A program made the translations under genes and the position numbers. 64,000 bases of DNA from Candidatus Aenigmatarchaeota archaeon (lineage in GTDB: Archaea; Aenigmatarchaeota; Aenigmatarchaeia; GW2011-AR5): assembly GCA_016198685.1 (NCBI GenBank), contig JACQID010000008.1, positions 32,001 through 96,000 of the forward strand, read 5' to 3'. Below the pieces are notes generated by a model, which saw nothing but the letters and a program-made list of their open reading frames with translations, was not told the origin of the DNA and searched no databases. Position 1 is the stretch's first letter. Each line of letters opens with the position of its first letter. This document shows, piece by piece, positions 5,605 to 53,970 of this stretch.

Positions 5605-5678
5605 TGGGAACGGAGGGATTTGAACCCCCGACAGCACGAGCTTCAGTCGTGTGCTCTCCCAGGCTGAGCTACGTTCCC
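5605..5678 (-). tRNA. tRNA-Phe(GAA), intronless
   Basis: Reverse complement GGGAACG TA GCTC AGCCTGGGA GAGC A CACGA CT GAA GC TCGTG CTGTC GGGGG TTCAAAT CCCTC CGTTCCC A. Confidence 0.96.
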
Positions 5679-5682
5679 AAAG

Positions 5683-5785
5683 CGCCCTCGCGCGGGCTCG
5701 AACCGCGGACCTTCTGGTTAACAGCCAGACGCTCTACCTATCTCAAAACGCTCCCGCAGGATACGTTTAACTGAGCTACAAGGGC
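5683..5785 (-). tRNA. tRNA-Asn(GTT) with 30-nt D-loop intron (about 16/17; 5740-5769)
   Basis: GCCCTTG acceptor, TCTGG CT GTT AA CCAGA arm, CGCGG TTCGAGC CCGCG T arm; removing 30 nt gives a 73-nt cloverleaf; central helix CUCA/UGAG. Confidence 0.92.
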
Positions 5786-5855
5786 TTAACTAAATCTGTT
5801 AGAAGTTATACTTTAATAAGTTTAAAAATGAGAAAATGAAAATGCAAAAGCAGAA

Positions 5856-6944
5856 TTAATCAATGAAATCCTTCTTCCTGAGCTTGTCCGGTAGGTATTC
5901 CTCGGACATGAATTTGAGGCCTCTATGCGAGAGAGCCTCTATCTCCGCTTTCACGCCTTTCTCTATCATGAGGTTTAGTTCCTTGACCCAACGCGGGTTC
6001 TTGTTGAACCATTCGTATTGAAGCAGCTCTTTTGCGCGCTTTATGTCAACTTCCCTTGTCTTTATAATGGCTTTTTTCAGGTCATAGTTATAGATGTCGC
6101 TGACTGTAAGGCCTATGAACCTCGCTTCAGGCGTTGCAATTCTGTCCGAAACGTGTGCTAAACTTATGGATCCGGATTTTATCACGGAATATATATAGAA
6201 ACCGTAGCTGTCGCTGTCTGCAAATACATAGACAGGCAGTTTATATTCGCTATTCAGTCTCTGTATCAAGAGTCTTGTCCCTCGGGACGGCTGGCCTCCT
6301 GTACCTATCAGTATGCACTTGAATTTCTGCCAGAATTTGTCCTCGTGAAGACGCTCGAATCCTGCGTTCTTCTCTACAACAAGCACGAACTCGGCTTTGA
6401 CGCTCTTGAATGTTATTTCATCCACCGTAGAGGGTATTGACCAGCCGCCGCTTCCGAGCTTGCCCCAGTTAATCTCGTCGCCTCGGTCTTCTATAATAAC
6501 ATCTCCTGCAACTATTCCTTTCCGATCGGTTGTCAGGTGCAAGTGCTCCCTTAACGTGTCAAGTGCGACCTCAAGATCCACAATAAGCGGATCGGATTCG
6601 CCTTGCTCATCAAATGTATTTTCATTGCTGTCAGCAAGCGTTCTCTTGAGGTTGTAATACATGTCTCTAATGCTCGCATGTATGCCTTCATCGAGCAGGC
6701 TTTTGCAGAAGCCGCCGACCATCATGGTCTGCATGAACTTCTTCGAGTGAGCAACGTTGAAAAAATATCTCTTGGCGGATTTGTCGCCCAGCATGAGCTG
6801 CTTCGTTTTCTTGTCAAATACAACGTTAGACAAAGTTCTGAGTGGAATGTCTATGCTTGGATTGCCTTCCTTTTCCAGCGTCTTGATTACATCTTCGCCC
6901 ATTTCAGCGAGTTTATTGCTTGTCTTCTTCACATCATCCGCCAT
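5856..6944 (-). CDS. top6A: DNA topoisomerase VI subunit A
   Basis: SIRDMYY (catalytic Tyr), VVEKNAGF, GGQPSRGTR, FADSDSYG TOPRIM motif, KAEIEAL. Confidence 0.97.
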   Translation of the reverse strand: MADDVKKTSNKLAEMGEDVIKTLEKEGNPSIDIPLRTLSNVVFDKKTKQLMLGDKSAKRYFFNVAHSKKFMQTMMVGGFCKSLLDEGIHASIRDMYYNLKRTLADSNENTFDEQGESDPLIVDLEVALDTLREHLHLTTDRKGIVAGDVIIEDRGDEINWGKLGSGGWSIPSTVDEITFKSVKAEFVLVVEKNAGFERLHEDKFWQKFKCILIGTGGQPSRGTRLLIQRLNSEYKLPVYVFADSDSYGFYIYSVIKSGSISLAHVSDRIATPEARFIGLTVSDIYNYDLKKAIIKTREVDIKRAKELLQYEWFNKNPRWVKELNLMIEKGVKAEIEALSHRGLKFMSEEYLPDKLRKKDFID

Positions 6945-6946
6945 GA

Positions 6947-52924: not shown

Positions 52925-52944
52925 TACTGGGATTTTCCAAGGAC

Positions 52945-53160
52945 AAGCTTCGCTTCTCCTGGATGTTGAAGACGCCACTTCAACAGAACCGAAGGTTCAT
53001 AGGGAAGACGAAGTCTTCACTGCGCCGGAGGAAGAATGTCCTCCTTGCGAATGCCGGCAGGCGCATCCAAGAAAAAATTCAAATCCCGGTTTGGCATCAT
53101 GATTTGAACCCTTGAATCATCTGAAGATTTTGATTTTCAGCATCCGAAGAAGCAGAGATT
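52945..53160. ncRNA. Candidate structured RNA or tRNA-derived relic downstream of tRNA-Gly
   Basis: Long-range GGATGTTGAA/TTCAGCATCC and GCTTCT/AGAAGC stems enclosing several hairpins and copies of tRNA-Gly 3' sequence. Confidence 0.35.
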
Positions 53161-53250
53161 CTCCAGCGAAGATCCCGCAGAGGCGCGTATCTAAATTCAA
53201 AGCCGATTGTAGTGGGATAGATATTTAAGTGGCTGTTCTAGTAGTATTAT

Positions 53251-53757
53251 ATGATATTTCAGAAAAAGAGCGAGATGCAGGAAATAAAAGACGCTCTTTC
53301 CCAGGATAATCCTTCTGTTCAAAAATATTATGGGCGCGAAAATTTTGCTAAAGAGGAGAATCGCCGCGCAGCTGCTCATGAGCCTGTTCGCACAGAAGAC
53401 GATGCAGTTGCTCCGCCGGTCAAAGGAAGCGCCCCGCTTTTTGTCAAGATTGATAAATACTATGATATTCTTAAGGATCTTCAGGAAATGAAAATGTTTC
53501 TGGCAGGGACAAAGCATCTTTATCATGTTCTTGAGGAAGTCGAAAACGTAAGAAACGACACGCTCAAGATAATGCGCGCAACGATACAGCGTCTTGAGAA
53601 GAGCGTTGTAGAAATGGATTCGGGGCTTCTTCGGCCAAGAGAAGATCAGTACCCAACACCTCAGGAAACGCCTGAGGTTCGCCACATAGAAGGCTCATTG
53701 AATGAGCTTCAGGGCCAGCTTGATGTTCTCAAAAAAGAATTGCAGTCCATGAAATAG
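53251..53757 (+). CDS. Hypothetical coiled-coil protein
   Basis: APLFVKIDKYYDILKDLQEMK helical domain. Confidence 0.75.
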   Translation: MIFQKKSEMQEIKDALSQDNPSVQKYYGRENFAKEENRRAAAHEPVRTEDDAVAPPVKGSAPLFVKIDKYYDILKDLQEMKMFLAGTKHLYHVLEEVENVRNDTLKIMRATIQRLEKSVVEMDSGLLRPREDQYPTPQETPEVRHIEGSLNELQGQLDVLKKELQSMK

Positions 53758-53815
53758 TGGAGATTTCTTTTTACCCGCCATCCATTTAAGCCTTGCCATC
53801 TAATTCTTCAATTGC

Positions 53816-53970
53816 GCGGGGGTAGCCAAGTGGCCAAAGGCGCAAGTTGAGTTATAAGGGCATTATGCCCGATGAATGCGAAACTCAAGAAACGCTTTGG
53901 GATATCTTGTCCCTTAGAGAAGAGTAATCTTCGGGGTATGGGTTCGCAGGTTCAAATCCTGCCCCCCGCA
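53816..53970 (+). tRNA. tRNA-Leu(CAA) with three introns (30/31, 36 nt, 53847-53882; 37/38, 14 nt, 53890-53903; variable arm, about 21 nt, 53918-53938)
   Basis: Spliced arm CAAGA CT CAA GA TCTTG; helices CGCA/UGCG, CUCA/UGGG, CCUU/GGGG; 84-nt product. Confidence 0.9.

Follow-up and report, generated by a model that had tools for sequence, protein, structure and literature searches.

The question raised by this locus is how tRNA precursors with introns at many different positions are processed in a small member of the Aenigmarchaeota (DPANN archaea) whose sole splicing endonuclease (EndA) belongs to a type that was for long believed to be restricted to strict canonical motifs; alpha4 and alpha'2 EndAs are described as cutting strict bulge-helix-bulge (BHB) motifs only (Hirata et al. 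2012, PMC3488258). The window, i.e., the whole 64,000-nt stretch of DNA analysed here (positions 32001-96000 of contig 3, in an assembly of 934,889 bp that is 93.7% complete), encodes both the endonuclease and a set of its candidate substrates (Table 1). A combination of BHB scanning, cloverleaf scoring and hand parsing identifies 10 tRNA genes in the window, nine of which are interrupted, with 13 introns located at 16/17, 20/21, 20a/21, 29/30, 30/31, 45/46, 59/60, in the variable arm and, in five genes (Ile-UAU, His, Arg-CCU, Ser-CGA and Leu-CAA), at 37/38. The preliminary description of this DNA had listed the same nine interrupted genes and 13 introns, and the BHB scan with the cloverleaf scorer arrives at the same list, with every one of the described positions recovered. 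In silico excision of the introns yields full-length tRNAs with the expected anticodons in all 10 cases (ARAGORN, no-intron mode), and the spliced sequences reach cloverleaf scores of 35-36 out of 36. In the genome (93.7% complete, 43 tRNA genes), the tRNA genes of the window are the only ones for their respective anticodons.

Table 1. The EndA gene and the tRNA genes of the window, with intron coordinates; positions are those of the window.
Feature	Coordinates	Strand	Details
EndA	4205..4816	-	203 aa, one alpha unit; Pfam PF02778 and PF01974 (N-terminal and catalytic domains)
tRNA-Phe(GAA)	5605..5678	-	no intron (sole such tRNA gene in the window)
tRNA-Asn(GUU)	5683..5785	-	30 nt, 5740-5769, at 16/17, D-loop
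tRNA-Ile(UAU)	20030..20144	+	13 nt, 20059-20071, at 29/30; 29 nt, 20080-20108, at 37/38
tRNA-Val(CAC)	22160..22257	+	25 nt, 22180-22204, at 20a/21
tRNA-His(GUG)	38000..38094	+	G-1 encoded at 38000; 23 nt, 38037-38059, at 37/38, canonical
tRNA-Arg(CCU)	46004..46119	+	41 nt, 46043-46083, at 37/38, canonical, strict BHB
tRNA-Ser(CGA)	50477..50608	+	39 nt, 50498-50536, at 20/21; 10 nt, 50554-50563, at 37/38
tRNA-Ser(UGA)	51881..51993	+	28 nt, 51952-51979, at 59/60, T-loop, strict BHB
tRNA-Gly(GCC)	52825..52924	+	29 nt, 52869-52897, at 45/46
tRNA-Leu(CAA)	53816..53970	+	53847-53882, at 30/31; 53890-53903, at 37/38; 53918-53938, variable arm

Most of these genes escape the standard tRNA finders. ARAGORN under default settings sees 2 of the 10, and the Rfam search reports 4 at the gathering score and 7 at a relaxed E-value, with large unaligned inserts. 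When introns are allowed, ARAGORN flags additional loci, several of them under a wrong name. The "Pro" gene that ARAGORN reports at 38001-38095 is tRNA-His(GUG) with an encoded G-1. As a practical warning, default finders caught no more than 2-4 genes out of 10, so that tRNA complements of DPANN archaea are easily under-called.

The scanner used for the junctions expects four exon nucleotides of the helix, followed by two bases of the bulge and the cut, and the mirrored arrangement at the 3' junction. By this geometry, the 4-bp central helix is perfect in 12 of the 13 introns, each of which also has one or both flanking helices. The exception is the intron of tRNA-Val, the central helix of which consists of 3 bp and a G.A mismatch (both flanking helices are present in this case, the inner one of 7 bp). 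The strict hBHBh' form, with both flanking helices of at least 2 bp, is found in five introns, namely those of His (outer helix of 5 bp, inner helix of 7 bp), Arg and Ser-UGA, the 37/38 intron of Ile and the variable-arm intron of Leu. Apart from these five and the Val intron, the introns, including the 10-nt one of Ser-CGA, are missing one flanking helix, outer or inner (HBh' or hBH/BHL forms). Thus, the Asn intron is of the HBh' type, with a central helix of 4 bp, an inner helix of 6 bp and no outer helix; both introns of Ser-CGA are of the bulge-helix-loop (hBH) type; and the Gly intron has a central helix of 4 bp and an inner helix of 9 bp.

Two controls address the frequency of such motifs by chance. 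A search of both strands of the reversed genome (844 kb) yields 276 candidates, none of which attains the cloverleaf score of at least 35 that is reached by the real genes. In the other control, single deletions that maximise the cloverleaf score were enumerated for the six single-intron genes without any use of the motif, to avoid circularity; a perfect BHB, usually with long flanking helices, is present among these deletions in 5 of the 6 genes, given 6-38 boundary choices per gene and a background of 0.5-0.8% per boundary pair for a qualifying BHB. The decoy search and the motif-free enumeration together indicate that BHB motifs occur at the junctions beyond chance expectation. Judging from the sequence, the inserts in the window are genuine BHB-type introns, at canonical as well as non-canonical sites.

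The pattern extends to the rest of the genome, where 34 of the 43 tRNA genes (79%) are interrupted by approximately 42 introns, with nine genes intron-free and six carrying two or three introns. About 20 introns are located at 37/38, and about the same number are found elsewhere, in the D-loop and D-arm, at 8/9, from 28/29 to 30/31, from 43/44 to 45/46, in the variable arm and at 59/60. The initiator tRNA gene, which has three introns and an anticodon loop with C33, was solved solely through comparison with an intron-free orthologue. Two inserts outside the window deviate from the motif: the second, 13-nt insert of Arg-UCG has no BHB under the scanner criteria, and the intron of Ala-CGC fits a BHB only if a 4-nt bulge is allowed; for long canonical introns outside the window, the assignment to strict or relaxed BHB depends on the rigid register of the scanner. 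Exon probes combined with acceptor-stem pairing did not find genes for Leu-GAG, Leu-CAG and Arg-CCG in the assembly and turned up only Lys-CUU; these genes may be absent, unassembled or too disrupted. An all-against-all blastn comparison of 36 introns, and a search of the introns against the genome, detects no intron that resembles another, so that intron transposition of the kind described in Thermoproteales is unsupported in this genome. A casposon origin was considered for the element located 3' of tRNA-Gly and is rejected: of the two Cas1 genes, one is only a fragment, and the intact one is part of a regular type I CRISPR-Cas locus.

Comparison with relatives shows how these introns behave over time. 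In other members of the order, introns were called automatically at the syntenic loci, and the orthologues of Ser-CGA, Ser-UGA, Gly-GCC and Leu-CAA differ in the position or number of introns or have none; Gly-GCC, for example, occurs across the order without an intron, with one at 16/17, 29/30, 37/38 or 45/46, or with three introns. In one genome from the same genus, the 45/46 intron of Gly and all three introns of Leu are conserved in position, with changed interiors. Intron positions, as called in these sequences, are stable within the genus and differ between genera, and this conservation within the genus combined with variation across the order indicates that introns are gained and lost fast.

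The EndA gene is located approximately 800 bp from the tRNA-Phe and tRNA-Asn genes. The best match among solved structures is the alpha4 enzyme of M. jannaschii (1A79), with an E-value of 3e-31, and the nearest homologues that bear names come from Aenigmarchaeota/Aenigmatarchaeota. The acidic loop of the protein, VDNEGD, aligns with VDADGD of 1A79, in the loop region that forms the tetramer in the M. jannaschii enzyme. Since EndA is a single alpha unit, it would be predicted to assemble as a homotetramer. The RtcB ligase is encoded on contig 7 (568 bits). The suggestion that this lineage had reached a different EndA solution is borne out in that the protein is a single 203-aa alpha unit with an L3 loop, i.e., neither an (alpha-beta)2 nor an epsilon2 enzyme.

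The L3-type loop, of the kind labelled Nanoarchaea/ARMAN-2-specific, is rich in Lys and spans residues ~138-148, between Tyr133 and His149, so that the spacing from Tyr to His is 16, compared to 8 in most EndA representatives. It can be aligned, position for position, to the basic NEQ205 loop from N. equitans (residues 90-98) and is nearly invariant across 120 close homologues. The Tyr-His-Lys triad, described as conserved in the accessible part of the EndA literature (Kaneta et al. 2018, PMC5829648), is incomplete in this protein: Tyr133 and His149 are present, and the position of Lys156 of M. jannaschii (His+31) is occupied by Ala180. The replacement extends across the clade, with Ala in 120 of the 121 close homologues. 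EndA diversity was sampled through 139 representatives in which Tyr and His are aligned. The Lys is lost in 10 of these, and in this group the L3-type loop is long in 8 proteins and Lys occupies His-5 in 9. In the 129 representatives with the Lys in place, a long loop is seen 8 times and a basic His-5 residue (Lys or Arg) 24 times. Because the representatives are related by descent, this association between the loop and the loss of Lys is no statistical proof. The altered active site is the new element here. It is possible, albeit somewhat doubtful, that the active site has been rewired in this clade, with the canonical transition-state Lys lost (replaced by Ala, Ser or Thr, in the motif NIR-A/S/T) and its role perhaps taken over by a Lys of L3, namely that of the invariant "GPK", at His-5.

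It appears very probable that the window contains ten working tRNA genes, nine of which are spliced by a broad-specificity EndA consisting of a single alpha unit, together with RtcB; the splicing itself, the tetrameric state of the enzyme and the role of its loop are what we infer here. The nine genes would be transcribed as precursors with one to three short introns, the borders of which would form a BHB or its relaxed version, i.e., a helix of 4 bp that is flanked by a 3-nt bulge at one end and by either a second bulge or a loop at the other. EndA would cut at both bulges, RtcB would ligate the exons, and L3, the Lys-rich loop adjacent to the catalytic His, would be the likely grip on relaxed substrates. 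Given that about half of the introns lie off 37/38 and many of the motifs are relaxed, the specificity of EndA must be broad, as far as can be judged from the substrates encoded in the genome. The chemistry of EndA, in which the canonical catalytic Lys is replaced by Ala, is not textbook and counts against this reading, as does the restriction to strict BHB described for alpha4 enzymes. The basic loop of N. equitans has been tied to broad specificity, but the lysines of the L3-equivalent loop of ARMAN-2 are dispensable (Hirata et al. 2012, PMC3488258).

The broad specificity could also have another source, if EndA were only the catalytic half of an (alpha-beta)2-like enzyme and the breadth were conferred by a divergent or unassembled structural subunit or by another nuclease. 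The best-known example of an L3 loop is that of the (alpha-beta)2 enzyme of N. equitans, a second subunit could be missing from an assembly that is 93.7% complete, and other families of the same class indeed possess adjacent alpha/beta gene pairs or two-unit genes for proteins of ~400 aa. However, another EndA-like ORF is not detected in the genome by Pfam searches at E-values up to 10 or by a custom profile compared with the complete set of six-frame ORFs, neither a beta subunit nor the three-unit epsilon form (~390 aa), the sole match being the 203-aa ORF itself, and each of the listed genomes of the same family (7 of 7) and the same order (5 of 5) likewise has a single significant EndA match of ~200 aa. 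Furthermore, EndA retains both domains as well as the acidic loop aligned to the tetramer-forming region of the M. jannaschii enzyme. A two-subunit origin of the specificity is therefore considered improbable.

It is far less probable still that the inserts stay in because the interrupted genes, in part or in their entirety, have been parsed incorrectly or are pseudogenes in decay. Such a possibility might be suggested by the failure of standard finders to detect most of the loci and by the mismatch in the central helix of the Val intron, but these genes are the sole ones for their anticodons, their exons form perfect cloverleaves, and BHB motifs occur at the junctions far above chance; moreover, the sister species keeps the intron positions and the exons while the interiors of the introns drift.

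Processing by a single alpha-unit EndA, the preferred reading, places this genome next to several systems described previously. Heavy interruption of tRNA genes by non-canonical and multiple introns is established in Thermoproteales, ARMAN and N. equitans (PMC4033280). Thermoproteales (Sugahara 2008 and Fujishima 2010, via the accessible part of PMC4033280) resemble the present genome in that a gene can contain as many as three introns, that these interrupt the D-, anticodon, variable and T-regions, that the BHB motifs can be relaxed, and that introns are gained fast. [quoted passage not shown] ARMAN-2 (Ca. Micrarchaeum; Fujishima 2011; Hirata 2012, PMC3488258) is likewise an ultrasmall DPANN archaeon with non-canonical introns of the hBH/BHL form and a loop at the L3 position, but its EndA is an epsilon2 enzyme, a three-unit protein of 390 aa in which the ASL loop gives broad specificity, compared to 203 aa here. 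In NEQ205 of N. equitans (PDB 3IEY), the loop KKGxK/RS..EH that precedes the catalytic His aligns with EndA residues 140-149; unlike EndA, NEQ205 has no N-terminal domain, requires the beta subunit NEQ261 and retains the catalytic Lys. Heavy interruption is now also established in Asgard archaea, which belong to a different superphylum; according to the available part of the published account, the load is higher there, at 2.2 intervening sequences per focal gene, and EndA is of another type. The proposed similarity of intron proliferation to Thermoproteales and ARMAN is upheld with respect to non-canonical and multiple introns. Across the present genome, the load is approximately one intron per gene, less than the extremes published for Thermoproteales and Asgard archaea.

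The closest precedent is found in other DPANN lineages. Kaneta et al. 2018 (PMC5829648), in the portion of the text accessible to us, name the L3 loop, add genomes of Pace-, Woese- and Nanohaloarchaeota and of Mancarchaeum, and report alpha4-type EndAs with L3 in several DPANN lineages alongside increased disruption of tRNA genes; Aenigmarchaeota are named in that portion only when the DPANN acronym is expanded. These enzymes resemble the present one in consisting of a single alpha unit, in having L3 around the catalytic His and in coexisting with many non-canonical or multiple tRNA introns, and differ from it in that the same portion describes the triad as conserved, in contrast to Ala in place of Lys here. 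In view of these DPANN enzymes and of the intron load, the novelty ascribed to the locus in the preliminary description was overrated: the locus is a fresh, clean example of a known archaeal habit, and its novelty is modest.

The value of the locus lies in a curated set of substrates combined with a question about the enzyme. Lineages with interruptions in the majority of their tRNA genes are few, and the locus contributes one more well-documented example, with the junctions located exactly. Given that the substrates and the enzyme are encoded within one window, the locus offers a compact test bed for the source of EndA breadth (subunit make-up versus loops) and for the relocation of the catalytic Lys to a loop. 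If such a relocation has indeed occurred, a mobile, loop-borne catalytic Lys would account for the cleavage of relaxed BHB motifs by a simple homotetramer wherever they lie in a tRNA, and would also explain the spread of introns through the tRNA genes of Aenigmarchaeota.

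A structured element of approximately 125 nt is located directly 3' of three tRNA genes in this genome, those for Gly(GCC), Gly(UCC) and Glu(UUC), and is followed by a repeat of the final 16-19 nt of the respective tRNA, from the 3' part of the T-loop to the discriminator base; this duplicated tRNA 3' end is partly decayed at two of the three loci. Pairing in the hairpins of the element is preserved between the copies via compensatory changes (5 pairs), and both tRNA-Gly loci of a genome from the same genus have the element in a reduced form, approximately 82 nt long. An Rfam search yields no match for the ~125-nt element. 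By its appearance it is either an RNA linked to tRNAs or a small, non-autonomous element that makes a long target duplication where it sits at the 3' ends of tRNAs. A connection of the tRNA-Gly-adjacent element to casposons was also checked and is not supported: the intact Cas1 gene of the genome belongs to a type I CRISPR-Cas locus, and the other Cas1 gene is a fragment. The intact gene adjoins an AbiEi/AbiEii pair; the fragment is interrupted by three in-frame stops and is flanked by the genes for tRNA-Pro(CGG) and the initiator tRNA.

Coordinates of the features discussed (contigs 1, 2 and 6 belong to the same assembly)
Feature	Location	Positions	Strand
tRNA-Ile(UAU)	window	20030-20144	
tRNA-His	window	38000-38094	
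tRNA-Ser(CGA), canonical intron	window	50554-50563	
Structured element	window	52925-53065	
Structured element	contig 6	~282708-282848	-
Structured element	contig 1	~181997-182136	
Initiator tRNA	contig 2	21222-21354	-
Cas1, fragment	contig 2	18320-18718	-
Cas1, intact	contig 1		

The AUA codon is read in this genome by tRNA-Ile(UAU). A search of the genome, which is 94% complete, gave no TiaS (PF08489), and the CAU tRNAs seen were just two, the elongator and the initiator. The pattern agrees with that known from N. equitans. The initiator tRNA, here and in five relatives, has C33 and the anticodon loop CCCATAA; the gene in this genome contains three introns, at about 29/30, 37/38 and 43/44, and one relative possesses a copy without introns. 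In tRNA-His, the additional G-1 is encoded in the gene and faces C73; the unspliced gene is called tRNA-Pro by ARAGORN.

In tRNA-Ser(CGA), the canonical intron measures just 10 nt and consists of a 4-bp helix, a 6-nt closing loop and a single 3-nt bulge, a size that is close to the lower limit for motif formation; other short introns in the same genome are 11 and 12 nt long. Across the genomes of the same class, the architecture of the tRNA-splicing endonuclease EndA differs from family to family: it occurs as a single protein some 200 aa long, as a longer protein (about 400 aa) that carries two catalytic-type domains, or as the products of adjoining genes, ~180 and 174 aa in length, and some genomes combine short and long forms. 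This variety is a natural panel for testing the co-evolution of the enzyme and the introns.
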